From a bacterium (lineage in GTDB: Bacteria; UBA8248): a stretch of 64,000 nucleotides of DNA. Positions 9,891-48,561 of the stretch are shown piece by piece. How positions within the stretch are numbered: the first letter of the stretch is position 1; each line of letters begins with the position of its first letter. The notes beneath the pieces are model-generated. The model did not search any database. It saw only the letters and a list, made by a program, of their open reading frames with translations, and was not told the DNA's origin. The position numbers and the translations under genes are program-made. The stretch covers positions 2,854,777 to 2,918,776 of the forward strand of contig CBDBEV010000001.1 of the NCBI GenBank assembly GCA_965204535.1. Direction: 5' to 3'.

Positions 9891-10066
9891 TTCGTCCTGC
9901 CCGTATCCGCGCACACCTACTTGAGAAATCCGCGCGAATATCCAACAATAGCGGAAAATCGCCAAGGATATAAAATTTCTTGGTTGTTGTTTTTGGACTA
10001 TTTATTCTTGTCCTCTATTTTTAGGGGTAGACCCGGAAATAGTGCTTGGAAAGAAATGAAAATGCA

Positions 10067-10870
10067 ATGATTTTGTATGAACAGATCGAATTGCTACGCA
10101 TCCATATTTCCGAACTGGAACAAGTTGAATATATCGGCACCCCTTTATTGGGCGGTGGGACAATGGACGCTTACACATTCAAGAAATATGTTTTGGTAGC
10201 AAGAGACATTCTGGCTTTCCTGAGTTTTGCGGATCCAGATGGGTCTATATTTCCGGAAATCAAGAGAGAAATTCGCTCCATTGAAGAAGATAAAGATATT
10301 TCATTGAAGCGCCTCCTAGGGATGATTGTTCACTTGAGCTACCTAGACCTCAATAATGACACTCCCCCAGAAACTTGCATCCTAGACGTAATAAACGACA
10401 GGGGGGAAAGGCATCGTGTTAAGTTGGGTGATTTTACATCAGCCTTAAATACACTTCTCTTGAAACCTCATCAGGTAGGTATTGCAGTGTGTTGCTTTAC
10501 AGATAGGCACATCAAAAAAATGGAGTCGTGCGGGAAGGATAAAATCCCAGAGATGTTCTTGAAACATTGGAATACGGCTACCTCCTGCAATTTCGATTGG
10601 TTACTCGCCAAATTTTGCAAAGATTTTTCATTGGAACAAGCAATCTTGAAGGAAATTTTTCAGTTTTCCATGATTGCAGAAACCCCGGATTGCGTTGATC
10701 CCAGAAGCTACATTTTTCATATGAATCCTACGAGATTAGACCTAGGGAAAATGAGCACCTCGCTTACTTGGAGCGACAGAAAAGAGAGAAAGATAAAAAT
10801 AGAGTCGGTTGGTGTTCGAAAGTTGATTTCTGTTATTCGAGGACACTTGGAATTGTATAATGTGGCTTAA
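10067..10870 (+). CDS. Hypothetical protein (AT-rich orphan gene; no recognisable domain)
   Basis: A long ORF in a clearly AT-richer stretch, with Lys/Ile/Asn/Phe-rich composition unlike its neighbours. It ends 30 bp before acs. ATG 10067 was chosen; the ORF is open back to TTG 10046. Confidence 0.6.
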   Translation: MILYEQIELLRIHISELEQVEYIGTPLLGGGTMDAYTFKKYVLVARDILAFLSFADPDGSIFPEIKREIRSIEEDKDISLKRLLGMIVHLSYLDLNNDTPPETCILDVINDRGERHRVKLGDFTSALNTLLLKPHQVGIAVCCFTDRHIKKMESCGKDKIPEMFLKHWNTATSCNFDWLLAKFCKDFSLEQAILKEIFQFSMIAETPDCVDPRSYIFHMNPTRLDLGKMSTSLTWSDRKERKIKIESVGVRKLISVIRGHLELYNVA

Positions 10871-10900
10871 ATTCAAACTGAGCCACTACCAAATTTTCAC

Positions 10901-12880
<1,980 letters not shown>

Positions 12881-12943: not shown

Positions 12944-12992
12944 TTGTATTGAGGTAGACACGATTACATTTTTTGAGGAGGTATCTTGAAGA

Positions 12993-14153
12993 ATGAGCTT
13001 AGAAGAAGTCTTGAAAAAGGCGGTCGAGCGCGTCCACGGAAGTGATTTGAAAGACGAAGAGGACAGCAAGCAGATTATAGAATCGATTTTGAGCAAATTA
13101 GGTTGGGATATTCATCATAAGAATGATGTGGAGAAGGAGTACGTCACGAAACGCAATACAGAAAAGAGGGGTAAGGATTCCAGCGTAGATTACGCGCTAA
13201 AAAGTAGTTACCAAGCCCCGGAAGTTTTTATCGAAGCCAAAAAAATTGGCAAAGCCGATGACAAGGCAGAGGAACAATTATTTGAATATGCCGCGAATGA
13301 AAAAGTTCTGTTCCTCGTTTTGACAGATGGACAGACTTGGACATTTTACGCAGGCGACAAAATAGGCAGGCGAGATGATAAGCCTGTTGATAGGCTGATC
13401 TGTCGAGTGAAATTGGACAGCAATGAACAGGAGCAAATCAAGGAATATGCCTCTAGTCTAAGTGCATATTTACGCAAGGATCGTATCGTTACTAAAAAAA
13501 CTGCTGAAAATAAGGCAAAAAAGCAATACGACAATAACATGAATCTCAAAAGGGCATGTGAGGCTATTCCGGTCGCTTGGCAACAGCTTGCGGAAACTTC
13601 GAATACAACCCTTTGTAATTTGCTTGCTAAAGGAGTAAAGAACCAATGTGGAACCAAGCCGAAACTTGAGGATATAGAGGCGTTCTTGAAGGGCCTTCGT
13701 CCCGGTTCCGCACCAACGACCCCTCATCGTCGGGCGAGTCAGTCAGCTACTACCTTGCCATTCCAGTCGTCGAAATCAGCCTCCATCCCATCACAATCAG
13801 CGGTCGGCAAGAAATCCAAACTCGTTGGTTTTTCCCTTGACAAAGAATCTTTTAATACCAGTTCTGCGAAAGAAACGCTGGCTGAAATACTAAAAAAGTT
13901 GCAAGACCGTGATCCCGGCTTCATGGACCGCCTTGCGAAGGAAACAGTAGGAAGGAAACGGAGGTTAGTGGCGAGAGACCGCAATGACCTTTATGACGAC
14001 CCCAAGTTCGTAAAGCAATCATCACTGGATTTGCAGAATGGATGGTGGCTAGGGCACCATCTCAGCACAGCGCAAGTCCAACGATACATAAAAACCGCCT
14101 GCGAAGTCGCGGGCGTGAAATACGGAACCCAGTTGACTCTGATTGAGCGCTAA
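12993..14153 (+). CDS. Stand-alone PD-(D/E)xK nuclease-like protein: HsdR-N-type N-terminal domain, Ser/Thr/Pro linker, and an uncharacterised C-terminal domain
   Basis: 'ILSKLGW...VDYAL...VFIEAKKIG...QLFEYA...LVLTDGQTW' follows the D...E-x-K core pattern of the type I restriction R-subunit N-terminal domain. The codon usage is AT-rich. Confidence 0.7.
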   Translation: MSLEEVLKKAVERVHGSDLKDEEDSKQIIESILSKLGWDIHHKNDVEKEYVTKRNTEKRGKDSSVDYALKSSYQAPEVFIEAKKIGKADDKAEEQLFEYAANEKVLFLVLTDGQTWTFYAGDKIGRRDDKPVDRLICRVKLDSNEQEQIKEYASSLSAYLRKDRIVTKKTAENKAKKQYDNNMNLKRACEAIPVAWQQLAETSNTTLCNLLAKGVKNQCGTKPKLEDIEAFLKGLRPGSAPTTPHRRASQSATTLPFQSSKSASIPSQSAVGKKSKLVGFSLDKESFNTSSAKETLAEILKKLQDRDPGFMDRLAKETVGRKRRLVARDRNDLYDDPKFVKQSSLDLQNGWWLGHHLSTAQVQRYIKTACEVAGVKYGTQLTLIER

Positions 14154-14198
14154 CTCCCAAGTATCCTGAAAAGCATTGGAAACAATTAAGAATGTTTT

Positions 14199-14231
14199 AT
14201 ACGCGGCTTCGCCGCTACTCAGGGTGAGGCG
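14199..14231 (+). repeat. 33-bp dispersed repeat
   Basis: ATACGCGGCTTCGCCGCTACTCAGGGTGAGGCG. Near-identical copies lie at 41236-41268 (reverse orientation) and 41659-41691. Confidence 0.55.
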
Positions 14232-22342: not shown

Positions 22343-23125
22343 ATGAACGCCCCTGAATCGTCGGATATGAAGGATAAGGTCGTCCTGGTGACCGGCGGCT
22401 CGCGCGGCATCGGCGCGGCCATTGCGAGGCGATTCGCGCGCGAGGGCGCGCATCTGGCCTTGAACCACAGGGACGGGAAGGGGAGGTCCGTCCAGATGGC
22501 GGACGAACTTTGCCGCGAGTTTGAGGCCGCCGGAGGACGGGCGGTCGCCATCCCTGCGGACATTTCGAAAAAAGACGCCGTAAAGGCCATGTTCGCGCAG
22601 GTGGAAGAGGAGTTCGGGCGACTCGACGTGCTCGTCCTGAACGCGGCGCGCGCGCCCTTCAAGCCGTGGGAGAAGCTCCTGGAGCGCGACCTCAAGCTCT
22701 TGGTGGAGACGAATTTTCTGGGCAACGTCTTCTGCCTGCAGGGGGCGCTTCCGTTGCTCTCGCGCCGGGGCGGGACCGTCGTGTTCATATCGAGTCTGGG
22801 GGGCCGCTTTTATCACCCCGAATACCCCCTGGGGCCCATGAAGGCGGCCATGGAGGCGGCGGTCACGCATTGGGCGGAAAGTTTCGAGGAGAGAGGCGTA
22901 TCGGTCAACGCCGTCTGCGCGGGGCTGGTGAAGACCGATTCGTTCAAGACGCTGCGCATGGTTCAGCCGGAGCTGGAAGAGCTGCCCGAGCGTTATTTCG
23001 TGACGCCGGAAGAAGTGGCGGAATCGGTCTATTTTCTCGCGGGCGCCGGCGCGGCTTCCATACGCGGGCAGACCCTCGTGGTCGACAGGGGACTCAGCAA
23101 CCGCCTGAACCGCCCCCCGGGGTGA
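22343..23125 (+). CDS. SDR oxidoreductase, FabL/FabI-like putative enoyl-ACP reductase
   Basis: It has 'VLVTGGSRGIG'. The catalytic region 'SSLGGRFYHPEYPLGPMKAAME' has a longer Tyr-to-Lys spacing than the classical YxxxK, as in enoyl reductases. Confidence 0.8.
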   Translation: MNAPESSDMKDKVVLVTGGSRGIGAAIARRFAREGAHLALNHRDGKGRSVQMADELCREFEAAGGRAVAIPADISKKDAVKAMFAQVEEEFGRLDVLVLNAARAPFKPWEKLLERDLKLLVETNFLGNVFCLQGALPLLSRRGGTVVFISSLGGRFYHPEYPLGPMKAAMEAAVTHWAESFEERGVSVNAVCAGLVKTDSFKTLRMVQPELEELPERYFVTPEEVAESVYFLAGAGAASIRGQTLVVDRGLSNRLNRPPG

Positions 23126-23260
23126 TGGAGCGGGGGAGATTCCTCGGAGAAGGTTGATTTTCGTTCCCCTCCTTGGTTGTATACGCTTGGATGCGTGGGG
23201 GAGGTTTGCATGCGTCCCTACACGAGGACGGGCCGCGCTTGATCGTTACAGAGGACTGCT

Positions 23261-23824
23261 ATGTCGCAAAACCTGGTATCAGACGATACGATTTTGGAAG
23301 AGGTGAAAAAGGCGATCGCCCACACCACGGGAATCGACGAGGAAACCATCGAGCCGGACAGCTCCCTGGTGGACGACCTGGGCGTCTTGTCGCTCGATTT
23401 TCTGGACGTGAACTTTCGCCTCGAGCAGGTGTTCGGCATCAAGATGGCGCGCAATTTCGTTCTGGAACACGTGGAGGAGATGTTCGGCGAAGGCGTGGCC
23501 ATCAACGAGGAGAGCGAGGTGACGGAAACAGGTGTCGAGGTCTTGAAGCTGCGCTTGAACGAAGCCGCTGCGGATCTCGAGCCCGGCATCCCCGTGGATG
23601 AGCTGCCGGCCCTCGTTACGCCGAAGACGCTGGCGGGCGCGGTGCGCGACGTACTGAACTGCCTGCCCGAGAAGAGCCCGGCGGGGGCGGACTGGAAGGC
23701 CGAGGATGGAACGCGCATCGTATGCGCGCAGACGAACGAACCCGCCGCTTTGCCCGGCGGCGATGAAGTGGTCCAGAACTGGCTGAACCGGGTGCAGGAA
23801 GAAAGGGGCCTCTTCTCCTCCTGA
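23261..23824 (+). CDS. Atypical long acyl carrier protein (187 aa)
   Basis: 'LVDDLGVLSLDFLDVNFRLEQVFGI' is an ACP helix-II motif with the phosphopantetheine Ser present but LSL in place of DSL. There is also an insertion of about 45 aa and a C-terminal extension of about 60 aa. Confidence 0.7.
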   Translation: MSQNLVSDDTILEEVKKAIAHTTGIDEETIEPDSSLVDDLGVLSLDFLDVNFRLEQVFGIKMARNFVLEHVEEMFGEGVAINEESEVTETGVEVLKLRLNEAAADLEPGIPVDELPALVTPKTLAGAVRDVLNCLPEKSPAGADWKAEDGTRIVCAQTNEPAALPGGDEVVQNWLNRVQEERGLFSS

Positions 23825-23868
23825 GGCCGCAGGCTTCATTCAAGCCGTTTTACCGGGAGAACATGTGA

Positions 23869-25179
23869 ATGGCCGGTAACGACAGGCGGGTCGTGATCAC
23901 CGGATACGGGGCGATGACGCCCCTGGGCAAGGACGTCGCCTCCACGTTCGACGCCGCTCGTGAGGGACGCTCGGGAATCGACGTGGTCCGCCGCTTCGAC
24001 CCCGAAAAGCTACCCTGCCGCATTGCCGGCGAGGTGGACGACGAGTGGATAGCCTCGCAGGAGAACGGTGCTGCGCGCAGGCTCGATAAATTCTCCACCC
24101 GGGGCGTGCGGATGATGCGCGTGGCCGTATCCCAGGCGGCGCAGACGGCGCGCTTGGGCGAAGTTCCCGAGAGAAAGCGAGTCGGCGTCGCGCTCGGCTC
24201 CCACGGCGATCACCCCCATGTCGAAGAGTTGCTCCGCATCTTCCCCTACTGGAAGCCGGAAGGCAGCGATCCCTTACAGGGCGGGTGGGACATCGAAGGC
24301 CTCAAAAGCCGCGGCGCCTATGATCTGATGACGTTTTTCAGAAGAAAGTCCGACGTGGCGACTTCGGTCGTCGCCTTGGATTTCGACTGCCGGGGTCCCA
24401 TGGTCTCCATCTGCTCGGCTTGTGCGGCGGGGGCGCAGGCGATCGGCGAGTCGGTGCGCCTCATCCGCGACGCGAAGGCGGACGTTATGGTGGCGGGCGG
24501 CTGCGAGGCGCCCATCACATACGTGGGGTTTCTCGGGTTCGTCCTGCTCACCGCGCTGGTGGAGAGATACGAAACCCCGCAGAGCGCGTCCCGTCCCTTC
24601 GACAGGAGGCGGAACGGCTTCGTGATGTCCGAAGGCGCGGGCGCGATGATACTCGAGAGCTACGAACACGCGCGTGCACGGGGCGCCGAGGTCCTCGGCG
24701 AAGTGCTCGGCTACGGCGATTCATCGGATGCGTTTCGCATCACCGACATGCACCCTAAGGGTCTCGGCGCGGTGTTCGCCATGAAAAAGGCGATCGAGGA
24801 TGCGCGAATCACGCCCGATCAAGTCGAATACGTCAACGCGCACGGCACCTCGACGCCCAAGAACGATTCCACCGAAACCAGGGCCATCAAGGAGGTGTTC
24901 GGCGCCCACGCGGAGAAGATGCCCGTCAGTTCCAACAAGTCCATGATCGGCCACACCATCGGCGCGGCGGGAGCCGTCGAAGCGATTCTGGCCGTGGAGG
25001 GGATGCGCCGCTCGGAGATTCTGCCGACCATCAACTACCAGAACCGCGATCCGAAGTGCGACCTCGACTACGTGCCCAACGAGACGAGGACGCAGGCCCA
25101 TCGCGTGGCTCTCTCCAACAGCTTCGGTTTCGGCGGGCAGAACGCCTGCCTTTGCCTGGGTGGTCCCGAGATCGCGTGA
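23869..25179 (+). CDS. Beta-ketoacyl-ACP synthase (FabF/KAS II-like, catalytically complete)
   Basis: The Cys-His-His triad is readable: 'SICSACAAGAQ', 'VNAHGTSTPKND' and 'SNKSMIGHTIGAAG'. Confidence 0.9.
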   Translation: MAGNDRRVVITGYGAMTPLGKDVASTFDAAREGRSGIDVVRRFDPEKLPCRIAGEVDDEWIASQENGAARRLDKFSTRGVRMMRVAVSQAAQTARLGEVPERKRVGVALGSHGDHPHVEELLRIFPYWKPEGSDPLQGGWDIEGLKSRGAYDLMTFFRRKSDVATSVVALDFDCRGPMVSICSACAAGAQAIGESVRLIRDAKADVMVAGGCEAPITYVGFLGFVLLTALVERYETPQSASRPFDRRRNGFVMSEGAGAMILESYEHARARGAEVLGEVLGYGDSSDAFRITDMHPKGLGAVFAMKKAIEDARITPDQVEYVNAHGTSTPKNDSTETRAIKEVFGAHAEKMPVSSNKSMIGHTIGAAGAVEAILAVEGMRRSEILPTINYQNRDPKCDLDYVPNETRTQAHRVALSNSFGFGGQNACLCLGGPEIA

Positions 25180-26366
25180 ATTTTCCGTCCATTCCGATCA
25201 CCGGCGTCGGCCTCGTAACGGCGGCGGGTCGAGGCGCCCAACCCGCCTGGGAGGCCCTTTGCGCGGGCCGCTCCCTCCTTGCTCCGGATGCTGATCCCGA
25301 ACTCGCTGGCTTCCCCCCCATCGAAACAGCGCAGTGCGCGCGAATCGACCCCGAATCGGTCGGCGCGTATCGACGTGCGGCGAGAATCATGGGCCACCAT
25401 ACCCACATGCTCCTGGCGGCGGTTCAAGATGTGATGGCCGACGCCCCTGCCGACCCGGAGATGACGGAGGAAGATATCGCCTTTTTCGCTGGCATGGACT
25501 CTGTCGATCCGGATAAAGACGATTTGGTAGGCGCAGTGAGGGAATCGGAAGATCTGGTGGATTTGGGGCATTTCTTCAGCGAGGGGATGGACGCCATCCC
25601 CCCGCTTTGGCCGCTCGGCATGTTGAACGCGATAGCTTTCAGCCAGGCGGCGATTCAGCACAGGTGGCGGGGCGAGAACGCCGTTTTCAGCACGGGCCCG
25701 GAGGCGACGGCGCGCGCCCTCTGCGAGGCGGCGGACTCGGTCGGATCAGGCAAGTCGAGGCTCGCTCTGTGCGCCGGCGTAAGCGGGGTGGTTTCCGCAA
25801 GAATGCTGGCCCGCGCGAAGCGGCGGGGCGCGTGGCCCGCTGCGGGCGGACTCGGAGAGGGCGCGGGCGTGATTCGCTTCGAGAAGACCGAAGTTGCCCA
25901 TTCGTCCAAAATTCTTGGCTGGTTCAAGGGCCAATCTTCTGTGCGCGCGTTAAAAAAAAGAGGCGGCCTCGTCCGGGCAATTCAAGAGTCGGCCCAGGGC
26001 GCGCTCGCGTGTGCCGGTCTCAAGCCCGAGGGAGTGGACCTTCTCGTGATTCATGGGGAGGGGGAATCTCGGGCGGATGGCGCCGAGGCGGAAGCGGTTT
26101 CCGCCGTTTTCGGCGGCCACAAGCCTTGGGGGCTTGCGACGAAGGGCGTATTCGGCCACCTTTGGGGGGGAAGCCCGGCGCTGGACCTGATTATGGCGAT
26201 GAAAGCCCTGGCCGAAGGCGCGGCGCCCCCATCTCCCGCATCGGAGAAGGAATTATTCCGGGATGCGGCAGATGGCTCCAGGCGGGATGAGCTCCGAAAC
26301 GCGCTGGTGCTTCTCCAGGGCTTCGACGGCGTATGCTCGGGGCTGGTGGTGGGAAAAGGCGCTTGA
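25176..26366 (+). CDS. Ketosynthase-like protein lacking the active-site Cys (chain-length-factor / KS-beta-like partner)
   Basis: It has a thiolase-fold layout, but the Cys position reads 'VFSTGPEATA'. Both His regions are retained ('VIHGEGES', 'KGVFGHLWGG'). Its GTG start overlaps the upstream stop (GTGA). Confidence 0.8.
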   Translation: MNFPSIPITGVGLVTAAGRGAQPAWEALCAGRSLLAPDADPELAGFPPIETAQCARIDPESVGAYRRAARIMGHHTHMLLAAVQDVMADAPADPEMTEEDIAFFAGMDSVDPDKDDLVGAVRESEDLVDLGHFFSEGMDAIPPLWPLGMLNAIAFSQAAIQHRWRGENAVFSTGPEATARALCEAADSVGSGKSRLALCAGVSGVVSARMLARAKRRGAWPAAGGLGEGAGVIRFEKTEVAHSSKILGWFKGQSSVRALKKRGGLVRAIQESAQGALACAGLKPEGVDLLVIHGEGESRADGAEAEAVSAVFGGHKPWGLATKGVFGHLWGGSPALDLIMAMKALAEGAAPPSPASEKELFRDAADGSRRDELRNALVLLQGFDGVCSGLVVGKGA

Positions 26367-26381
26367 CGGGAGAACGGGAAA

Positions 26382-26834
26382 TTGCGGTTTCTCTTTTTCG
26401 ATCAGATCAAGGAGATGGTGCGCGGCGAGCGGATCGTGGGCGTCAAGACGTTTCCGCTCTCAGAAGCATATTTGAACGCCCATTTCCGGCGCGCGCCCCG
26501 GGTGCCCGGCTCGATCCTCATCGAGGCGATGGCGCAGATCACGGGGTGGCTCGTAATCTACACCTATGATTTCAAGACCTCGTGCGTCATCTCGCTCATC
26601 GACGACGTGGAGGTGGCGAACGACCTGCGACCGGGCGTTACCGTGGAGATTCATGGCGAGATAATCGACACGAACGAACGGGCGAGCCTGTGCCGCGCGC
26701 GTATCGAAAAAGACGGTGTCGCTGTGGCCAAAGCCGAGCGGTTCGTGTATCCCCACTTTCCCAATGACGATCCAGAAAGCCTCAAGGAGCGCTTTAGAAG
26801 CTACGGCTGGCTGGCGTTCGAGGAGACGGCATGA
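26382..26834 (+). CDS. Hot-dog 3-hydroxyacyl-ACP dehydratase (FabZ/FabA-like) 1
   Basis: 'HFRRAPRVPGSILIEAMAQITGW' matches the FabZ His-containing motif HFPxxPxxPGxLxxEAxAQ. TTG start. Confidence 0.8.
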   Translation: MRFLFFDQIKEMVRGERIVGVKTFPLSEAYLNAHFRRAPRVPGSILIEAMAQITGWLVIYTYDFKTSCVISLIDDVEVANDLRPGVTVEIHGEIIDTNERASLCRARIEKDGVAVAKAERFVYPHFPNDDPESLKERFRSYGWLAFEETA

Positions 26835-28096
26835 GCGCGCAGGTATTCATCACCGGCCTCGGCATGGTGACCTCTTTGGGCGCCGACGTGGAGACTTGCT
26901 GGCGGCGGGCGCTGGCCGGTGAATCGGGCCTCGCGCCGATCACGTCTTTCGACGCGAAAGCGCTGCCCGTCGCCGGAGCGGGCGAGGTTTCTGAGGAGAC
27001 GCTCCGCGCCATCCGGGAGAGGCTTCCCGAGGAATATGCGGGCGAGGGGGAGCGCAGGGTGTTGTTCGCGCTCGACGCCGCGCAGAACGCGATGACGGAC
27101 GCCGGGATGCGCCCCGGCGATTATGCCCCCGAGCGCGCGGGCGTGGTGATGGGGACCGGGCTGAGCAGCTACCGGCTGGAGGATTTCGCCGCCTGGGCGG
27201 ACCCTGAAAACGGCTTCGACGCCGTCCGCTTCGCTGAAGAGCTTGAGATGACGCAAGTCTCCGGCTACTTCAACAACCCGCCCGAGCGGGCGACCTCCCT
27301 GATGGCGGAGTGGTTCGAACTCGCCGGTCCCACCGGCACGATCACCTCCGCCTGCGCGGCGGCGGGTCAGGCGATTGGCCTCGGGATGCGCATGATCCGA
27401 AGGGGCGAGGCGGACGTGGTTCTTTGCGGCGGGGCCGATTCGATGATCCATCCCGTCGGGATGGCCATATTCCTCCTGCTGGGCGCGGCGTCCAAATCGA
27501 AAGACCCCATCTGCCGTCCTTTCGACAGAAGACGCTCCGGCCTCGCCGTGGGCGAAGGGTCGGGCGTGGTGGTTCTGGAGTCGCAAGACCATGCGCGCGC
27601 GCGGGGCGCTGCGCCCTACGCCGTTCTATCGGGCTACGGCGCGAGCATGGACGCGCACCAGGTGACGGCCCCGCACCCGGCGGGCCGGGGCGCCGTTCGG
27701 TCGATGAGCGAGGCGATGGAAGATGCGGGCCTGGCTCCTGATGATGTCGCCTACGTCAACGCGCACGGCACGGGCACGAAACTGAACGATCCGGTCGAGA
27801 CCAGGGCGATTCGCGAGGTGTTCGGCGCGCGGGCGGATGCGCTGGCGGTGAGTTCGTCCAAATCCATGATCGGGCATCTCATCGCCGCCTGCGGCGCGCC
27901 CGAGTTCATCTTCACGGCCTTGAGCGTCGCGCGCGATATCGTGCATCCTACGACGTGCCTTGAGAACCCGGACCCGAAGTGCGATCTCGACTACGTGGCC
28001 GGGGGGGCGAGGGAGATGCCCGTGCCCGCCGCCATCACGAATTCCTTTGGTTTCGGCGGGCAAAACGCCACCTTGCTCGTGAGAAAGGCGGCCTAG
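26831..28096 (+). CDS. Beta-ketoacyl-ACP synthase (FabF-like, catalytically complete)
   Basis: 'ITSACAAAGQA', 'VNAHGTGTKLND' and 'SSKSMIGHLIAACG'. Its ATG overlaps the upstream stop (ATGA). Confidence 0.9.
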   Translation: MSAQVFITGLGMVTSLGADVETCWRRALAGESGLAPITSFDAKALPVAGAGEVSEETLRAIRERLPEEYAGEGERRVLFALDAAQNAMTDAGMRPGDYAPERAGVVMGTGLSSYRLEDFAAWADPENGFDAVRFAEELEMTQVSGYFNNPPERATSLMAEWFELAGPTGTITSACAAAGQAIGLGMRMIRRGEADVVLCGGADSMIHPVGMAIFLLLGAASKSKDPICRPFDRRRSGLAVGEGSGVVVLESQDHARARGAAPYAVLSGYGASMDAHQVTAPHPAGRGAVRSMSEAMEDAGLAPDDVAYVNAHGTGTKLNDPVETRAIREVFGARADALAVSSSKSMIGHLIAACGAPEFIFTALSVARDIVHPTTCLENPDPKCDLDYVAGGAREMPVPAAITNSFGFGGQNATLLVRKAA

Positions 28097-28113
28097 ATGA
28101 GAGGTGATACGGA

Positions 28114-28866
28114 ATGAAAATCGATTTGAGCGGAAAAATCGCGCTGGTGACCGGAGGCGGGCGGGGCATCGGGCGCGCCTGCTGCACGGCCCTGGCCGAG
28201 GCGGGGGCTTCGGTGGCGGTCAACTACAGCCGCTCGGCGGAGGCCGCCGAGGAGGTAAAGGGGGAGATCGAAGCGGCCGGCGGGCAGGCGAATACCTACC
28301 AGGCCGACGTCTCCTCTTTCGAGGACGTATCGGCGATGTTCGAGCAGGTAAAAGAGGATTTCGGCACGCTCGATATTCTCGTCAACAACGCGGGCGTGAT
28401 ACAGGACGGCTTGCTGCTCACCATGAAGCCCGCAGGCTGGCGCAAGGTGCTCGGCGTGAGCCTGGACGGCGCTTACCACTGCACGAAGGCGGCCGGCGAG
28501 ATCATGCTCCGGAAGCGCTCCGGCAAGGTGATCAGCATCTCCTCCGTCATGGGGGTTTCGGGCGGGGCCGGGCAGACGAACTACGCCTCCGCCAAGGCGG
28601 GCATCATCGCCTTCATGCGCGCCTGCGCGGCGGAGATGGGAAAGCGGGGAATCCAGTTCAACACCATATTGCCGGGCATGATCGTCACCGACATGAGCGA
28701 GCGCGTGCGCGAGAAGGGCGGCGACGTGATTATGGGGCGCATACCGGCGGGCCGCTTCGGCGAACCGGAGGACGTGGCCAGGCTCGTGGTGTTCCTGGCG
28801 TCCGCGGAATCGGATTACATCAACGGACAGGCGATAGCCGTGGACGGCGGTCTGCTCACGGGCTGA
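28114..28866 (+). CDS. fabG: 3-oxoacyl-ACP reductase (FabG-type SDR)
   Basis: 'ALVTGGGRGIG', 'NNAGV' and 'SSVMGVSGGAGQTNYASAKAG' (S...YxxxK). Confidence 0.9.
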   Translation: MKIDLSGKIALVTGGGRGIGRACCTALAEAGASVAVNYSRSAEAAEEVKGEIEAAGGQANTYQADVSSFEDVSAMFEQVKEDFGTLDILVNNAGVIQDGLLLTMKPAGWRKVLGVSLDGAYHCTKAAGEIMLRKRSGKVISISSVMGVSGGAGQTNYASAKAGIIAFMRACAAEMGKRGIQFNTILPGMIVTDMSERVREKGGDVIMGRIPAGRFGEPEDVARLVVFLASAESDYINGQAIAVDGGLLTG

Positions 28867-28884
28867 GCGCGGGGGATATTCGGG

Positions 28885-29301
28885 ATGCAGCTGTACCAGG
28901 GGGTGGATTTGGTGGAGGTCGCGCGCTTGAAGGAGGCCTATGAGCGCCACGAGGCGTTCGGCGAGGACGTGTTCACCGAAGCCGAGCGGGCGTATTGCCT
29001 GAAGCGCCGGAACCCCTATCCCCACTTCGCGGCCCGCTTCGCGGCGAAAGAAGCCTGCCTCAAGGCATTCGGCCTCGGCATTTCCGAGCCGGGCGGGCTG
29101 GGCGGCAGGGGGCGTTTGCGCGAGATCGAGGTGGAATCGATGGCTTCGGGCAAACCCACGCTCAAACTGAGCGGCTCGATGGAGCGCATGAGCGCGCGAA
29201 AGAAGATCACGCAGTCCACCATTTCGATGAGCCATACGCTCGATCTGGCGGTGGCCCAGGTGATCCTCCTGGGCGAGGACGCGCCGGAAGAAGCTGATTA
29301 A
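28885..29301 (+). CDS. acpS: Holo-ACP synthase (AcpS-type 4'-phosphopantetheinyl transferase)
   Basis: 'GVDLVEVARL', 'FTEAERAYC', 'FAARFAAKEACLKA' and 'SMSHT' are typical AcpS. Confidence 0.85.
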   Translation: MQLYQGVDLVEVARLKEAYERHEAFGEDVFTEAERAYCLKRRNPYPHFAARFAAKEACLKAFGLGISEPGGLGGRGRLREIEVESMASGKPTLKLSGSMERMSARKKITQSTISMSHTLDLAVAQVILLGEDAPEEAD

Positions 29302-29313
29302 GGAGTCCTTGGT

Positions 29314-29775
29314 TTGAGATATATGCTCGTGGACAGGGTGACGGCGTGGGAGGCGGGGGTCTCCATCCAGGGGGTGAAGAACGTCACGATGAGCGAGGAT
29401 TTTCTGGAGTTCCATTTCCCGCGGTTTCCCGTCATGCCGGGCGCGCTGATATTCGAGGCGCTGGTGCAGCTGGCAGGCTGGCTCGAAGCGGCGGAATCCG
29501 ATTTCACCCGGTGGATTCTTTTGGAAAAGGTTCGAAGCGTCAGGTACTATGGATTCGCCTTTCCGGGGGATCAGGTCCTCCTGAACGTGGAGGCGCGGGG
29601 AGAGGAAGAAGGTCTCAAGAACTTCAGGGGCGTTGCCACCGTGGAGGGCGAGCGTCGGGTGGTCGCCGATTTTGGCGGAAAGGCGGCGCCGCTCGCGGAT
29701 TATGAGGATCCCGAGGAGCAGCGCCATCATTTTCGTGTTCTCGGACGCGAGATTCGGTTGAGCCAGGCGGGATGA
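29314..29775 (+). CDS. Hot-dog 3-hydroxyacyl-ACP dehydratase (FabZ/FabA-like) 2
   Basis: 'FHFPRFPVMPGALIFEALVQLAGW'. An AAGGAG Shine-Dalgarno lies 8 nt before TTG 29314. Confidence 0.8.
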   Translation: MRYMLVDRVTAWEAGVSIQGVKNVTMSEDFLEFHFPRFPVMPGALIFEALVQLAGWLEAAESDFTRWILLEKVRSVRYYGFAFPGDQVLLNVEARGEEEGLKNFRGVATVEGERRVVADFGGKAAPLADYEDPEEQRHHFRVLGREIRLSQAG

Positions 29776-29778
29776 GCG

Positions 29779-31077
29779 ATGCGAGGCGAGGAAGTCTGGA
29801 TTACGGGCGTGGGTTTGCTGACTTCCATAGGCGAGAATGCCGGGGAAAACTGGGAGTCGCTTTGCGCCGGAAAATGCGGGGTCGCCTGTCATCCAAGCGA
29901 GGATAACGGCTCTCTTCCGGATAATTTCGCCTACCATGGCGCAATCCCCGGCCATGAAGACCCGCCCGAGGTGCCGCCCAAACTCGCGAGCCAGCGCAAA
30001 TTCCTGAACAGAAGCTCCATCCTGGGGCTTTACGCCGCCGCCGAGGCGGTGGCCTGCTCTGGTCTCGACATGGGAGAGGTGGCGCCCGAGAGAAAGTCCC
30101 TCTACGTCGGTTCGGGCGATTTCACCAGGGTGGGCTATGTGGATTTCTATGCCGCGCTCAAACAAACGGCCGGCGAGGCGTGGGACGCGCCCGAACCCGC
30201 CTCCCTCAACGAGGCGTCGCTCCACAGGGTAAGCCCTTTTTTCCTGCTCGAGGGATTGCCCAACAATCTTTTCAGCTATCTCTCGGGCATCTACGAATTC
30301 ATGGGGCCGAACGGCAGTTTTTCCAGCCTTTCATCCTGCGGCGCGCAGGCGCTCGAGAATTGCGACCGCGTGCTTCGCTTCGGCGAGGCCGACGTCGGCC
30401 TCGTCGTGGGCTGCGGGAGTTGGGCGCACCCCATGGTGCTCCTGGAACTCGACGGGCTGGGCATTCTCTCCCGGGCGAAAGAGGGGGCCGAGTCGTTCCG
30501 GCCCTTCGACAGGAGGCGCGATGGATTCTTCCCCGGAGAGGGCGCCGCCGCCCTGGTGCTCGAGAGCGCCGAATCCGCCTGTGCGCGGGGCGCGAAGCCC
30601 CTGGGCCGCGTTCTGGGGACGGCGAACTGCCAGGAATACTCCTCTGAGCGCTATATTCCCGTTCCCACCGGCGCGGTGCGCCATTCGGTGGAATCGGCGG
30701 TGGCCGAGGCGGGCGTCACGAGCGATGATCTGGCCTTCATCCTTCCCCACGGGAGTGCGACGCCCCAGGGAGACGCGGGCGAATTGTCCGCCTTGCTGGA
30801 ATACGGCGATAAGGTCAAGGGCCCGATTCCGCTCGCCGGCTGGAAGCCCTATACGGGACACATGGGCTCCGCCAGCGATTTGGCCGAGATCGTGCTGGGA
30901 CTCTCTGCCCTCAATGAGGGCCGCCTTCCCCCCACGCCGGGCCTTGAGCAAAAAGACGATGCCTTCGAGGCCCTCCACATCCCCACCGAAGAATGCGCCG
31001 TCTCGGGGGCCGCGTTCCTGTCCCTGAGTCACGGCATCGGCGGGCAATCCTCCGCAACCATCGTCGCCGCGCAGTGA
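29779..31077 (+). CDS. Divergent beta-ketoacyl synthase (Cys-His-His retained in unusual sequence contexts)
   Basis: Thiolase fold with 'SSLSSCGAQALE', 'ILPHGSATPQGD' and 'KPYTGHMGSASD'. Confidence 0.8.
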   Translation: MRGEEVWITGVGLLTSIGENAGENWESLCAGKCGVACHPSEDNGSLPDNFAYHGAIPGHEDPPEVPPKLASQRKFLNRSSILGLYAAAEAVACSGLDMGEVAPERKSLYVGSGDFTRVGYVDFYAALKQTAGEAWDAPEPASLNEASLHRVSPFFLLEGLPNNLFSYLSGIYEFMGPNGSFSSLSSCGAQALENCDRVLRFGEADVGLVVGCGSWAHPMVLLELDGLGILSRAKEGAESFRPFDRRRDGFFPGEGAAALVLESAESACARGAKPLGRVLGTANCQEYSSERYIPVPTGAVRHSVESAVAEAGVTSDDLAFILPHGSATPQGDAGELSALLEYGDKVKGPIPLAGWKPYTGHMGSASDLAEIVLGLSALNEGRLPPTPGLEQKDDAFEALHIPTEECAVSGAAFLSLSHGIGGQSSATIVAAQ

Positions 31078-32060
31078 ACAAATCCGCAGAATCCACCAAG
31101 AGAAAACGCAGCAAAGACAAGGGCGCGTTTCACCAATGGGTGGAATACGCCCTGCTCGTTTCGTTTCTGTGGTTGATCCGCCTGCTGCCCTATGGTGTCT
31201 GCCGCGCGGTTTCCGTTTTGATAGGGGAGGCGATTTTCCGCTTCGCCCCCAGGAGAAGGCGCATCGCGCGCGCCAACCTGCGCATCGCGTTCCCCGAACT
31301 CAATGAAGCGCAGCGCTCCGTTCTGGCGAGGCGCAGTTGCCGTTCGTTTATTCTCACCTGCCTGGAGGGAGCGAAGTTTCTGACCCGCTTCGATTTGCGA
31401 CGCGCCGAGAAAACGGTGCGCGAGATCGTGGACGAGGCGGAGGAGACAATAGATAAGGTGCGCGTGATTCACGAAGATGCGGGCGGCTGCGTGTTCGTCG
31501 TGCCGCATCTGGGGAACTGGGAATTCCTCGCCCATGCCGGCGCGCTGGCGGGAATTCCGCTCACCATCCCGGTGCGTCCCCTGGACAATCGAAAGCTCGA
31601 AGCCTCGCTGTATGCAATGCGCGCATCCTCCGGACAGGAGATTCTTTCGAAGAAAAACGCCTTCTTTCACCTGCGCGAGGCGCTGCGCAAGGGCCGTTCG
31701 GTGGCGATTCTGGCGGATCAGAACGCGGGTGGCGAGGGAATCGACGCGCCGTTTTTCGGCAAGCCCGCCAGGACGACGCTCGCTCCCGCAGCCCTCGCGG
31801 TTCTCTACAACCGGCCCATTGTCCTGATCTCGTGTCTCAGAAAAGGCGGTGGCCGGCGCTATGAGGTCTTGCTCAGCGAGCCGATAGCGCCCGATATGAA
31901 CGCGCAAAGCGCCAAAAAAGAAATCGAGAGGCTCACGATGGCGGTGAACGAGGAGACGGAAAATTTTATTCGAAAAGGGCCGGAGCAGTACTTATGGATC
32001 CATGACAGGTGGAAACTCACCAAAAGCCAGGGACCGTCCCGGTGGGCCGATTCAAGTTGA
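31074..32060 (+). CDS. LpxL/HtrB-family (lipid A secondary acyltransferase-like, LPLAT) acyltransferase
   Basis: An N-terminal TM segment 'YALLVSFLWLIRLL', then 'FVVPHLGNWEF' (the HxxxxE/D acyltransferase motif of the LpxL family) and 'ILADQNAG'. Its GTG overlaps the upstream stop (GTGA). Confidence 0.8.
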   Translation: MNKSAESTKRKRSKDKGAFHQWVEYALLVSFLWLIRLLPYGVCRAVSVLIGEAIFRFAPRRRRIARANLRIAFPELNEAQRSVLARRSCRSFILTCLEGAKFLTRFDLRRAEKTVREIVDEAEETIDKVRVIHEDAGGCVFVVPHLGNWEFLAHAGALAGIPLTIPVRPLDNRKLEASLYAMRASSGQEILSKKNAFFHLREALRKGRSVAILADQNAGGEGIDAPFFGKPARTTLAPAALAVLYNRPIVLISCLRKGGGRRYEVLLSEPIAPDMNAQSAKKEIERLTMAVNEETENFIRKGPEQYLWIHDRWKLTKSQGPSRWADSS

Positions 32061-32459
32061 AGCTTCAGGGGAGGATACGGTTTCTTTCAGATGCTTGAAG
32101 AAGGGAACCCCCAGTTTTTCGAGTTTCGCCTCGAGCTTTTCCGTGCAGTCGCAATCGCCGCAGACGGGATAGCCTTCGCAATCTTCAGGTTTGCGGGCGA
32201 AGCGCACGTCGATCTCCTCGAAATACGCCTCCCAGTAGGGTAGTTCCTCATACAGCTCATAACCCGGCCCGAACGCCTCGCGGCAGTAGCAGACCTCGAG
32301 CCAGCGAACCTGGCCTTTCTCGGTGAGCCTCGCCTCTTTCATGCACTTGAGAAACGTCCGGTGCGCGATGGAGCCTCGCCCGAGTTCGCCCGATTCGATG
32401 GCTTCGAGCAGGGCGGCGCTCTTGCCCTCGATGACTTTTCCGCGCACGAGATAACGCAT
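32052..32459 (-). CDS. Hypothetical Cys-rich protein
   Basis: 135 aa with good GC3 bias and a GGAGG Shine-Dalgarno upstream. It has a 'CYC' and a 'C-x5-C-x2-C-x-C' cluster but no recognised domain. Its 3' end overlaps the acyltransferase 3' end by 9 bp. Confidence 0.6.
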   Translation of the reverse strand: MRYLVRGKVIEGKSAALLEAIESGELGRGSIAHRTFLKCMKEARLTEKGQVRWLEVCYCREAFGPGYELYEELPYWEAYFEEIDVRFARKPEDCEGYPVCGDCDCTEKLEAKLEKLGVPFFKHLKETVSSPEAST

Positions 32460-41750: not shown

Positions 41751-42791
41751 CTAGTCCATCACGATGACCGCGCGGCCCGTGACGGCCGCGACTTCCAGCC
41801 GTTCGTGCACTTTTTCCACCTCTTCGGCGTTGAACGAGTAGGTCTCCGTCACCACGGGCCAGACGTCGCCCCGCGCCACCAGATCGAGCGATTCCTTGAG
41901 TTCCTGTTTCGAACAGTATCGGCTGCCCAAGAGTTCGAGTTCTTTCGTCACCATATCGCGCGCCGCGGCCTGGAACGGCTGCCCCGTGCCGCCCAGCGTC
42001 ACCAGGCGCCCGCCGATTCCCAGGGATTGAACGCCCGCTTCCATCGTGGCGGCGGAGGAGACGAAGTCGACCACCACGTCTACGCCCTCCCCGTTCGTCA
42101 AGTCCATGAGCGCGCCAGCCACGTCTCCCTGGGATGCGTCGACGACCTCGTCCGCGCCCACGTCGCGGCACTTGCCCAGCTTGTTCGCCGCGGCGTCCAC
42201 GGCGATGACCCTCGCGTGCGCCCACTTCGCCATCATCACCATGTGGATGCCCACGCCGCCGCCCGCGCCGATGACGGCCACGTTCTCGAGCGGCGCGATG
42301 CGCGCGCGCTTCGTTACTTTATACGGGGTGGCTATCGCGTCGCAGATAACGGAGACCTCCGCCGCGTTATTCTCGTAATCCAGCCCGGCGGGGATTTTGA
42401 TGAAATTCCGTGCGGGCAGCTTGATGTATTCGGCATAGGCGCCCTGCACCTGGCGGCCGATGTAGCCCGTGAAGTTCTCGCACAGCGTTTCGCGGTTGAT
42501 AAGGCACCACTTGCACCTCCCGCACGTGACGTAGAAATGGGCGGTCACCGCGTCGCCCTCCTGGAGGCCCTCCACGCCTTCGCCCAGGGCGGTGATGACG
42601 GCGGTGATCTCATGGCCGATGATGAGGGGATAGGTCACATCGGGCACCCGGCCCATGCGGGCGTGGTGGATGGTCAGCCCCGCGCCGCATGCCAGTACCT
42701 TCGCGACCGCCTCCCCCGGCCCCGCCACGGGGTCCGGATATTCTTCCTCGACAAAGGGTTCTCCAGGTCCTCTCAGCACCATCGCCTTCAA
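41751..42791 (-). CDS. Zn-dependent alcohol dehydrogenase-family oxidoreductase (MDR)
   Basis: 'GHEITAVITALGEGV', 'CGRCKWC' and 'VIGAGGGVG' motifs. Confidence 0.9.
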   Translation of the reverse strand: MKAMVLRGPGEPFVEEEYPDPVAGPGEAVAKVLACGAGLTIHHARMGRVPDVTYPLIIGHEITAVITALGEGVEGLQEGDAVTAHFYVTCGRCKWCLINRETLCENFTGYIGRQVQGAYAEYIKLPARNFIKIPAGLDYENNAAEVSVICDAIATPYKVTKRARIAPLENVAVIGAGGGVGIHMVMMAKWAHARVIAVDAAANKLGKCRDVGADEVVDASQGDVAGALMDLTNGEGVDVVVDFVSSAATMEAGVQSLGIGGRLVTLGGTGQPFQAAARDMVTKELELLGSRYCSKQELKESLDLVARGDVWPVVTETYSFNAEEVEKVHERLEVAAVTGRAVIVMD

Positions 42792-47475: not shown

Positions 47476-48561
47476 TTACTCCGGCAGGCGGACGACGGCC
47501 GAGCCCGCCGTCGCCAGCTCGCCCTCCTGGTTCGTTCCGGTGATCTCCACCTTCACGGTGCGCTCGGCCTCGTTTTTCTCGACCACCTCTCCCTTATGCC
47601 AGATGGTGTCGCCGTAGATCATGGGGCGGCGCACCTGGACGTAGAGGTTCTTCAGGAACGCGTCGTCCCCCATCCAGTTCGTGATGAAGGGGCTCACCCA
47701 GGCGAAGCGCATGACGCCGTTGTCGAAAGGTCCCGGCATCCCGCGCCCCGAGGCGAGGTTGAAGTCCTCGTGCTGCTGGGAGTTTTTCACCTGGATCCCG
47801 ATCTGGGGGATCAGGACGGCGTTGTGCGGCGCTTTTTTGAGGTCGAGATAGCCGCGCCTGCCCGCCTTGTAGGAGGGGCCGTTGCCCGCGTTCCAGGCCA
47901 CCATGTCGCCGATGGTGAGGGGGCCGCGGAGCATGGGCGGGAGCTCATCGCCGACCGATACGTCCCCAAAGCGGCGCTTCTCACCCCCTCGTCTTTCTTC
48001 GGCCTGGTAGGCGTTTTCGATTTCTTGGAATTCCGCCTCGTCGTACTTCTTGACGGGCCGCTCGTAGAGGAGCGTATTTCCTTCCTGCAGAGTCCTGATC
48101 ATCGTGCCGATACCCCTGGCGACGACCTCATCCGCCTCGTTCCAGTAGGTGCACTCCGAGATGATGAAGATGAGCTGTCGGCCCGCCTTGTTCGTCTTAA
48201 CGAACGAATCCTTCTGGATGGATTCGGCGCGCAGCCTGGCTCCCTGGGAGACGGGTTTTTCCCACTCGAATTCCACGCCCCCGATGAGGGAGGAGAGGGG
48301 CACTTCCATGGGCGCACCGTGGAGGATCGGGTAGAGGACCGACACCAGAAACGCGGGCGGCGCCATGATGTCCTTGTGAGATGTGCCGGATGCGTATCCG
48401 GCGTCCAGCCAGAGCGGGTTGTCGTCGTCGATGCCGTAGGCGAAATGGCGGATGGCGTCGGCGCTCGCCTCGTTGTTCCACGCCTCGCGCTCGCGCACGG
48501 GCTTGCCGTTCAGTGCTTGTGTCTTCTCGATGAACTCATCGATATGTGCTTGATTCGACAA
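47476..48561 (-). CDS. Double hot-dog MaoC/FAS1-like acyl dehydratase
   Basis: 361 aa. An N-terminal MaoC-N-like half ('IRHFAYGIDDDNPLWLD') and a C-terminal MaoC-like half ('YGDTIWHKGEVVEK'). Confidence 0.7.
   Translation of the reverse strand: MSNQAHIDEFIEKTQALNGKPVREREAWNNEASADAIRHFAYGIDDDNPLWLDAGYASGTSHKDIMAPPAFLVSVLYPILHGAPMEVPLSSLIGGVEFEWEKPVSQGARLRAESIQKDSFVKTNKAGRQLIFIISECTYWNEADEVVARGIGTMIRTLQEGNTLLYERPVKKYDEAEFQEIENAYQAEERRGGEKRRFGDVSVGDELPPMLRGPLTIGDMVAWNAGNGPSYKAGRRGYLDLKKAPHNAVLIPQIGIQVKNSQQHEDFNLASGRGMPGPFDNGVMRFAWVSPFITNWMGDDAFLKNLYVQVRRPMIYGDTIWHKGEVVEKNEAERTVKVEITGTNQEGELATAGSAVVRLPE

Follow-up and report, generated by a model that had tools for sequence, protein, structure and literature searches.

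Within a 64,000-nucleotide stretch of bacterial DNA (hereafter the window; contig CBDBEV010000001.1 of assembly GCA_965204535.1, GTDB lineage UBA8248), eleven co-oriented genes on the forward strand (22316 or 22343-32060) encode what we take, on balance, to be an accessory and dedicated type II fatty-acid synthase (FAS II). Using its own acyl carrier protein (ACP), it would build a specialised acyl chain, probably of great length and for the most part saturated, and deliver it to a membrane glycolipid, most likely to lipid A as a secondary chain. The open reading frame (ORF) listing, together with Pfam and NCBIfam scans, recovered in order a FabL-like enoyl reductase (ER) of the short-chain dehydrogenase/reductase type, an ACP, an active ketosynthase (KS1), a Cys-less ketosynthase homologue in the position of a chain length factor (CLF), a FabZ-like dehydratase (DH1), a second active ketosynthase (KS2), a FabG-like ketoreductase (KR), an AcpS-type phosphopantetheinyl transferase (PPTase), a second FabZ-like dehydratase (DH2), a third ketosynthase homologue without the catalytic Cys (KS3) and an LpxL-like acyltransferase. 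All eleven genes, with these domain identities, lie where a first-pass annotation made from the letters alone had placed them, and that annotation was equally right about what the cluster does not contain: FabD, FabH, an adenylation enzyme, a thioesterase, a glycosyltransferase, LolA or MMPL. Beside the cluster, too, domain scans detected neither FabD nor FabH, nor any adenylation enzyme, thioesterase, LolA or MMPL, and acetyl-CoA carboxylase genes are absent from it. Orthologs were gathered from 84 related loci and each family was aligned, with active sites checked over 57-78 orthologs. The catalytic residues are conserved in these family alignments, which suggests that all eleven proteins work and are subject to selection.

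When 185,579 species genomes were scanned with a profile, 78 loci emerged, and the module was found in only about 75 of these genomes. Judged by its closest named relatives, the window organism belongs to the uncultured Nitrospinota, in which BLAST of the eleven window proteins against the loci recovered the same gene order. The same order recurs at 30-60% identity in metagenome-assembled genomes (MAGs) labelled Nitrospirota, Syntrophobacteraceae/"delta proteobacterium", Acidobacteriota and Planctomycetota, and in one Gammaproteobacteria MAG; the CLF family is nearly confined to Nitrospinota at 47-90% identity, after which identity falls to about 32%. Because the order from ER to the LpxL-like gene recurs in 56 independent loci, the arrangement is not due to chance. 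Thirty-eight of the 56 are complete with eleven genes, 11 are short of KR alone, 3 of the PPTase alone and 3 of both, and in 1 DH1 was undetected. Outside Nitrospinota, KR is gone from 14 of 31 loci and the PPTase from 6 of 31. Bar the single undetected DH1, these two are the sole genes ever dropped, and their housekeeping equivalents are FabG and AcpS. The Nitrospinota loci have flanking genes that are conserved among themselves; no flanking gene family is common to the Nitrospinota loci and the others, and thus the module itself is the conserved unit. In two Acidobacteriota MAGs a true FabF gene lies upstream of the cluster in divergent orientation (L052 5370-6635 (-) and L068 5373-6623 (-)), scoring 549 and 557 bits against TIGR03150, over the cut-off of 493.75.

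Carrier protein and terminal acyltransferase

In rhizobia, the acpXL-fabZXL-fabF2XL-fabF1XL-adhA2XL-lpxXL cluster makes lipid A's 27-OH-C28 VLCFA (very-long-chain fatty acid; PMC11901934). Taking the S. meliloti cluster as a reference locus (L086), we calibrated the NCBIfam models with its proteins, which identified NF005079 as AcpXL, NF005120 as LpxXL, NF005076 as FabF1XL and NF005084 as FabF2XL. The window ACP (23261-23824, 187 amino acids) has NF005079 as its top NCBIfam family, at 50.8 bits against a cut-off of 83 and 189.5 bits for S. meliloti AcpXL itself. The acyltransferase (31074-32060) has NF005120 as its top family, at 135.8 bits against a cut-off of 273 and 492.5 bits for S. meliloti LpxXL itself, with other LpxL-type models next. 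As these are the top curated families of the two proteins, the carrier and the acyltransferase point to the AcpXL/LpxXL type. BLASTP gave 43% identity to S. meliloti AcpXL over 76 amino acids and 27% identity to LpxXL over 269.

The PP-binding domain of the ACP occupies only residues 14-70, with Ser44 invariant among orthologs, and the AcpP model gives the protein 35.6 bits, its cut-off being 70.45. Its top sequence match in the PDB is the specialised R. palustris ACP RPA2022 (2KW2/3LMO), with 43 bits versus 31 for the next distinct natural ACP; we take RPA2022 to be an AcpXL-type carrier for the very-long-chain fatty acid of lipid A. The AlphaFold2 model of the window protein (predicted local distance difference test, pLDDT, 91.5) likewise has 3LMO as its best Foldseek match, over 122 columns versus about 60 for ordinary ACPs. 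Orthologs measure 185-195 amino acids in all lineages. In those from Nitrospirota, Syntrophobacteraceae, Acidobacteriota, Planctomycetota and the Gammaproteobacteria MAG, the C-terminal approximately 50 residues carry a CxxC...CxxC pattern; Nitrospinota ACPs, that of the window included, have a single Cys left in this tail (residues ~135-187, 23663-23824 (+)). The protein is thus best described as an AcpXL-like core with a putative zinc-ribbon-like C-terminal extension that appears degenerate in Nitrospinota.

The acyltransferase, a membrane enzyme by family, matches PF03279 at 177.7 bits. Its PHLGNWE motif, which supplies His145-x4-Glu150, is invariant among orthologs, as is Asp215.

Ketosynthases and reducing enzymes

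KS1 (23869-25179) and KS2 (26831-28096) have the intact Cys-His-His triads that the first-pass annotation had reported, and the triads are kept in all orthologs bar one or two gapped or atypical rows. In KS1 (Cys185/His325/His362) the Cys is present in 78 of 78 orthologs and the two His in 77 and 78 of the 78; in KS2 (Cys175/His312/His349) the Cys is present in 66 of 66 and the His in all except one or two rows. KS1 scores 449 bits against the fabF model TIGR03150 (cut-off 493.75) and 440 bits against NF005589, over its cut-off of 387. Its sequence identity is 40% with E. coli FabF, 36% with FabF1XL and 31% with the aryl-polyene (APE) protein ApeR, and it reaches 341.8 bits against the FabF1XL model NF005076 (cut-off 629). 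KS2 scores 388 bits against TIGR03150 (cut-off 493.75).

CLF (25176-26366) is likely the partner of KS1. It is indeed Cys-less, as had been proposed, with Pro at the Cys position in the window and Pro, Ala or Gly in orthologs, and each catalytic His is kept in approximately 55% of orthologs. The window protein matches PF00109 and PF02801 only and does not match the FabF2XL model NF005084. An exact look-up of this protein came back empty, as a shorter start had been chosen when the gene was called (P0014).

KS3 (29779-31077) had earlier been called divergent. It scores 182 bits against TIGR03150 and 71.8 bits against NF005084 (cut-off 320), and alignment to FabF 4QAV adds what that description had missed: the catalytic Cys is replaced by an invariant Ser, giving Ser185-His324-His361. 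This Ser is present in 57 of 57 orthologs and both His in all 55 of the 57 that align there, and the FGFGG gate has become (H/Y)GIGG. An exhaustive HMMER search of 1.84 billion proteins found only about 12 representative KS3-like clusters. Ser occupies the position in 10 of the 12 closest full-length KS3-like representatives, and the next relatives beyond these clusters are CLF-like proteins of other systems. Among the nearest relatives of KS3 we also observed P0370, an 878-amino-acid protein of an unrelated system that is a natural fusion of an active ketosynthase (Cys) with a C-terminal Cys-less homologue (Gly).

Replacement of the Cys by Ser with the decarboxylation residues kept recalls the KS-Q and KS-S loading domains and chain initiation by CLFs. 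By this pattern, KS3 is a candidate malonyl-ACP decarboxylase, initiation factor or partner of KS2. Since Ser-His-His keeps the decarboxylation residues, priming by KS3 could explain the missing FabH or starter enzyme. In anammox bacteria, a FAS-type heterodimer of a ketosynthase and an inactive ketosynthase primes synthesis by malonyl-ACP decarboxylation (bioRxiv 10.64898/2026.05.19.726425), a precedent for priming by such a pair.

A ketosynthase phylogeny, one of the checks proposed in the first-pass annotation, was built by neighbour-joining with 200 bootstraps and included E. coli FabF and FabB, alphaproteobacterial FabFs, FabF1XL, FabF2XL, ApeO and ApeR. The window ketosynthases fall outside the established groups: none of KS1, KS2, KS3 and CLF is nested among the FabF, FabF1XL or APE ketosynthases, and grouping with FabF1XL has 0-1% bootstrap support. 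Each family instead forms one clade spanning phyla (KS1 98%, KS2 89%, KS3 97% and CLF 98% bootstrap), and the four-ketosynthase design is thus older than the module's spread. KS3, CLF and FabF2XL, which all lack the Cys, cluster together at 70% bootstrap, a grouping to which long-branch attraction could contribute.

The remaining enzymes complete a reducing cycle. ER (22316 or 22343-23125, the ATG at 22343 being an alternative start with GAGGGA just before it) finds its best NCBIfam family in the FabL equivalog NF005975, at 184 bits against a cut-off of 328 and with the runner-up family at 148 bits, and its best PDB match in B. subtilis FabL (3OIC, 126 bits). Ser160 and Tyr170-x5-Lys176 are invariant across 68 orthologs, and the gene is found in all of the 56 full loci. 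An ER whose active site is conserved speaks for a saturated chain and against a polyene. KR (28114-28866) scores 281 bits against the FabG model TIGR01830 (cut-off 297.75), with sequence identities of 40% to E. coli FabG and 37% to the APE protein ApeQ. DH1 (26382-26834) matches FabZ models under their cut-offs, with 58.7 bits against a cut-off of 155 for one of them; DH2 (29314-29775) scores 84.9 bits against the same cut-off and 91 bits against the FabZ model NF000582 (cut-off 113). PF07977 is the only Pfam family matched by either dehydratase at E <= 0.001. DH1 is 27% identical to FabZXL by BLASTP, and the two dehydratases range over 27-28%. His34 is present in 69 of 70 DH1 orthologs and Glu48 in all, and both residues are invariant in DH2. 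The PPTase (28885-29301) matches PF01648 and, at 63.8 bits, exceeds the 59.8 cut-off of TIGR00516, with Asp8, Glu56 and Lys60 invariant among orthologs.

Proposed pathway and alternative readings

From these identities and active sites we propose the following pathway, in which every role is a prediction from sequence. The AcpS-type PPTase would convert the 187-amino-acid AcpXL-like ACP to its holo form, and malonate would be loaded by a housekeeping FabD, which we invoke because the cluster has no FabD of its own. KS3 would then decarboxylate malonyl-ACP and so provide the primer, perhaps paired with KS2 as its non-condensing half, which would remove the need for FabH. KS2 and the KS1/CLF heterodimer would carry out early and late elongation, with CLF helping to set chain length, while KR, the two dehydratases and ER would fully reduce each cycle. 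The LpxXL-like enzyme would finally move the finished chain from the ACP to a hydroxyl of lipid A or of a similar outer-membrane glycolipid. A very long chain is suggested by the full reducing set with its two active ketosynthases and by the enlarged AcpXL-like carrier.

Several observations weigh against this pathway. All matches to the XL families lie under the curated cut-offs, at identities of 27-43%. ER has Tyr-x5-Lys versus the Tyr-x6-Lys of FabL and scores under the FabL cut-off. The priming role of KS3 is read solely from its residue pattern, and a Ser nucleophile would equally allow acyl transfer. ACP searches returned only metagenomic or MAG proteins, named no further than "acyl carrier protein" or "hypothetical", and found no cultured carrier organism. 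Finally, chains of PatA are among the five PDB hits of the acyltransferase, and the LpxL family acylates other glycolipids too.

This last point bears on an alternative that we rate as unlikely, in which the FAS II chemistry is the same and the acceptor of the LpxL-family enzyme is not lipid A. Candidate acceptors are a different glycolipid of the outer or cytoplasmic membrane, a conjugate of hopanoid or aminolipid type, or, as for PatA, a lipid of the mannoside type. PatA, which acylates phosphatidylinositol mannosides, belongs to PF03279, and the window enzyme reaches only 135.8 of the 273 bits required by the LpxXL family. An operon encoding MlaC, an MMPL-RND protein and a TolC-like outer-membrane efflux protein (OEP) lies convergently just downstream of the LpxL-like gene in 15-19 Syntrophobacteraceae-type loci (within L048-L080; for example L066 15718-18251 (-) and L064 17351-20218 (-)). 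It resembles machinery for lipid export, a hint that a lipid is trafficked separately. Against this alternative, the acyltransferase finds its best curated family, and its best BLAST match among the references, in the lipid A late acyltransferases (LpxXL ahead of other LpxL-type models), the carrier is AcpXL-type, and the MlaC-MMPL-OEP neighbourhood occurs in one lineage only. We dropped flanking genes as a clue to the acceptor, since no family is common to both groups of loci and this operon is restricted to the Syntrophobacteraceae-type loci.

We consider it improbable that the cluster is an aryl-polyene-like or highly reducing type II polyketide synthase (PKS) making a lipid-anchored polyene or a partly unsaturated pigment. 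The first-pass annotation had likened the locus to an APE core, and the two do share a KS/CLF pair, further ketosynthases, a pair of hot-dog dehydratases, a KR resembling FabG, an ACP of their own and an acyltransferase, which is the terminal gene of the window cluster. In addition, precomputed annotations name an ApeI-like family for DH2 orthologs, and the flexirubin FlxB model gives KR 240 bits. Direct comparison with the apeA-apeR cluster of E. coli CFT073 (locus L087) led us to reject an APE identity, as BLAST found no match to ApeC, ApeD, ApeI or ApeP. The acyltransferase and CLF families differ as well: ApeD, of the PlsC type, belongs to PF01553 and the window acyltransferase to PF03279, and ApeC belongs to PF13723 whereas the window CLF does not. 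The dehydratase families may differ too: ApeI and ApeP belong to PF22818 and PF22817 and the window dehydratases match FabZXL, although DH2 orthologs carry the ApeI-like annotation. The window versions of the shared proteins are all nearer FAS II than APE, with KS1 and KS2 closer to FabF than to ApeO or ApeR and KR closer to FabG than to ApeQ; the window ketosynthases also score lower against NF005490 and NF006618, which we assume to be APE-type ketosynthase models, than against FabF. Unlike the APE cluster, the window cluster has an ER and lacks an adenylation enzyme (ApeH), a thioesterase, a methyltransferase, a GT2 glycosyltransferase, LolA and MMPL. The earlier proposal of a specialised, self-contained lipid module ending in LpxL-type transfer stands, whereas its partly reduced or polyene product is improbable, given an ER with a conserved active site in every full locus. 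We also rejected an aromatic type II PKS, as the CLF position holds Pro, Ala or Gly and not Gln, no cyclase or aromatase is present and the reducing set is complete.

That the cluster is the housekeeping fatty-acid synthase is very improbable: it does hold a complete KS-KR-DH-ER cycle with ACP and AcpS, and its conserved flanks give it the look of core genome in Nitrospinota, but it lacks genes for FabD, FabH and acetyl-CoA carboxylase, its long ACP reaches about half of the AcpP cut-off, its three ketosynthases, KR and both dehydratases score under equivalog cut-offs, it was found in only some 75 of the genomes scanned, its KR and PPTase are dispensable, it coexists with FabF in the two Acidobacteriota loci and its last gene is a lipid A-type acyltransferase, and we infer that in the window organism, too, it is not the housekeeping FAS II.

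Genomic surroundings and related systems

Within the cluster, start and stop codons overlap at GTGA 25176 (KS1/CLF), ATGA 26831 (DH1/KS2) and GTGA 31074 (KS3/LpxL-like), as the first-pass annotation had noted. It had given the other gaps as 3-45 bp, which is close for most of them (3-44 bp) and fails for the ER-to-ACP spacer, a 135-bp interval (23126-23260 (+)). Translational coupling may lead to stoichiometric co-production of the cluster proteins. The spacer holds a block of about 40 nucleotides, GGTTGATTTTCGyTCCCCTCCTTGGTTGTATACGCTTG, which the closer Nitrospinota loci have kept and in which TTGATT forms a -35-like hexamer. This promoter-like block may drive the ACP gene from within the cluster, as an internal promoter reportedly does for acpXL in Agrobacterium. 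A scan for the sigma-70 consensus made no call on the block, the spacer had no Rfam match, and promoter, terminator and Rfam scans of the cluster region as a whole gave nothing exceeding chance.

Upstream of the cluster lie genes for PAC2, a MerR-type response regulator, Dtd, DUF2400, NAD kinase and RecN, and downstream lie glgA, a glgC-like gene and, further on, purD; these flanking genes are housekeeping genes unrelated to the cluster. A Cys-rich ORF of 135 amino acids (32052-32459 (-)) runs convergently to the LpxL-like gene and overlaps its 3′ end by 9 bp. It has no Pfam or NCBIfam match, is kept at the same position in the Nitrospinota loci L001, L003 and L006, and does not recur in the flanks of loci outside Nitrospinota. 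Elsewhere in the window, an insertion-sequence-type transposase gene (DUF772 and DDE_Tnp_1, 3247-4686 (+)) sits among housekeeping genes. Two low-GC islands (9,900-10,950 and 12,950-14,200; 41-49% against a background of about 62%) flank an acetyl-CoA synthetase gene (10901-12880) and may be acquired DNA; an ORF at 12993-14153 has a weak match to HSDR_N, a restriction enzyme N-terminus. A 361-amino-acid protein with a FAS1-like dehydratase region (MaoC/hot-dog; 47476-48561 (-)) is encoded between prmA and dnaJ, unlinked to the cluster.

Literature searches found no described pathway with this exact architecture, in agreement with the first-pass annotation. The N. gracilis genome paper makes no mention of the cluster or of fab genes. 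Nitrospinota is the phylum of major marine nitrite oxidizers, and the module occurs in further ecologically important uncultured lineages, namely Nitrospirota, peat Syntrophobacteraceae, Acidobacteriota and Planctomycetota. If our reading is right, the module predicts a new envelope lipid and a possible biomarker for the groups that carry it, and it would offer a compact, portable 11-gene cassette for unusual acyl chains with two new enzyme parts, the Ser-His-His ketosynthase and the zinc-ribbon ACP. Planctomycetes hold residually bound C26-C32 (omega-1)-hydroxy acids (PMC3327967), and, on that reading, the module could be the source of the orphan very-long-chain residually bound fatty acids met in environmental and planctomycete surveys (PMC3327967). 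The planctomycete ACP search returned MAGs only, and a link to the cultured planctomycetes with (omega-1)-OH C26-C32 acids was not established.

Among characterised systems with a comparable design, mycobacterial FAS-II (AcpM, KasA/KasB, MabA, HadABC and InhA) is a dedicated elongation system for very long chains. Like the window cluster, it combines an extended ACP, two active ketosynthases, a KR, paired dehydratases and an ER. The likeness is an analogy of design only and does not extend to any particular kinship in sequence: scores against the KasA/KasB and AcpM models are low. Mycobacterial FAS-II passes its chain to Pks13, whereas the window cluster has an LpxL-type transferase.

Anammox Cluster I places amxACP, amxFabZ and amxFabFmut/amxFabF2 beside a B12-radical SAM protein and a phytoene-desaturase homologue (bioRxiv 10.64898/2026.05.19.726425). 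It resembles the window cluster in its pairing of a ketosynthase with an inactive one, its own atypical ACP and its FabZ, and differs in having no LpxL-type acyltransferase, ER, KR or PPTase. KS1 scores 275 bits against PDB 9S5H, which we presume to be the anammox FabF heterodimer, versus 335 bits against ordinary FabF. We rejected a ladderane-type identity because neither the B12-radical SAM protein nor the phytoene-desaturase homologue is present in or beside the window cluster.

The closest characterised system is the rhizobial AcpXL-LpxXL cluster for the VLCFA of lipid A, a system whose product is an (omega-1)-hydroxy acyl chain of C26-C34. Very-long-chain lipid A stiffens the rhizobial outer membrane and affects stress tolerance and host interaction, and to our knowledge dedicated synthases that decorate lipid A with very long chains have been characterised essentially only in Rhizobiales and a few relatives. 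The rhizobial and window clusters share a dedicated, specialised ACP, a FabZ-like dehydratase, tight co-oriented packing and a PF03279 late acyltransferase as the last gene. Both also pair an active FabF-like ketosynthase with a Cys-less homologue, since FabF2XL has Glu at the Cys position. They differ in gene number (11 in the window, 6 in rhizobia) and in host phyla. The window cluster adds its own ER, KR and PPTase, a second dehydratase and two further ketosynthase-type proteins, the Ser-His-His ketosynthase among them, and its ACP is twice as long, with the zinc-ribbon-like tail. Conversely, the rhizobial cluster includes a Zn-dependent alcohol dehydrogenase, whereas the window cluster has none inside it.

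A Zn-dependent alcohol dehydrogenase gene does lie beside purD (41751-42791 (-)), about 10 kb downstream of the window cluster, and the corresponding gene is about 3 kb from the cluster in L006, L030 and L031. We rejected it as an AdhA2XL equivalent because the resemblance is at family level only (30% identity) and its proximity is probably inherited synteny. A match on a Hyphomicrobiales plasmid (H1) was likewise rejected as an acpXL cluster, as only an LpxL homologue is present there.

The more specific proposition, that in several uncultured phyla the module makes an undescribed chain bound to lipid A or an outer-membrane glycolipid, either very long or unusual in some other way (for example C26 or longer), by means of a Ser-His-His ketosynthase acting as initiation factor or ketosynthase partner and a double-length zinc-ribbon AcpXL-like ACP, is one that we put forward tentatively, as a possibility; neither of these two proteins has a characterised counterpart. 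Collectively, the module is an uncharacterised and phylogenetically scattered variant on the theme of a dedicated fatty-acid synthase joined to a lipid A late acyltransferase, much more elaborate than its rhizobial relative and, malonyl loading aside, largely self-sufficient. It reaches none of the membership cut-offs of the AcpXL-LpxXL families and has a very different gene content, yet by analogy it would work like that system.

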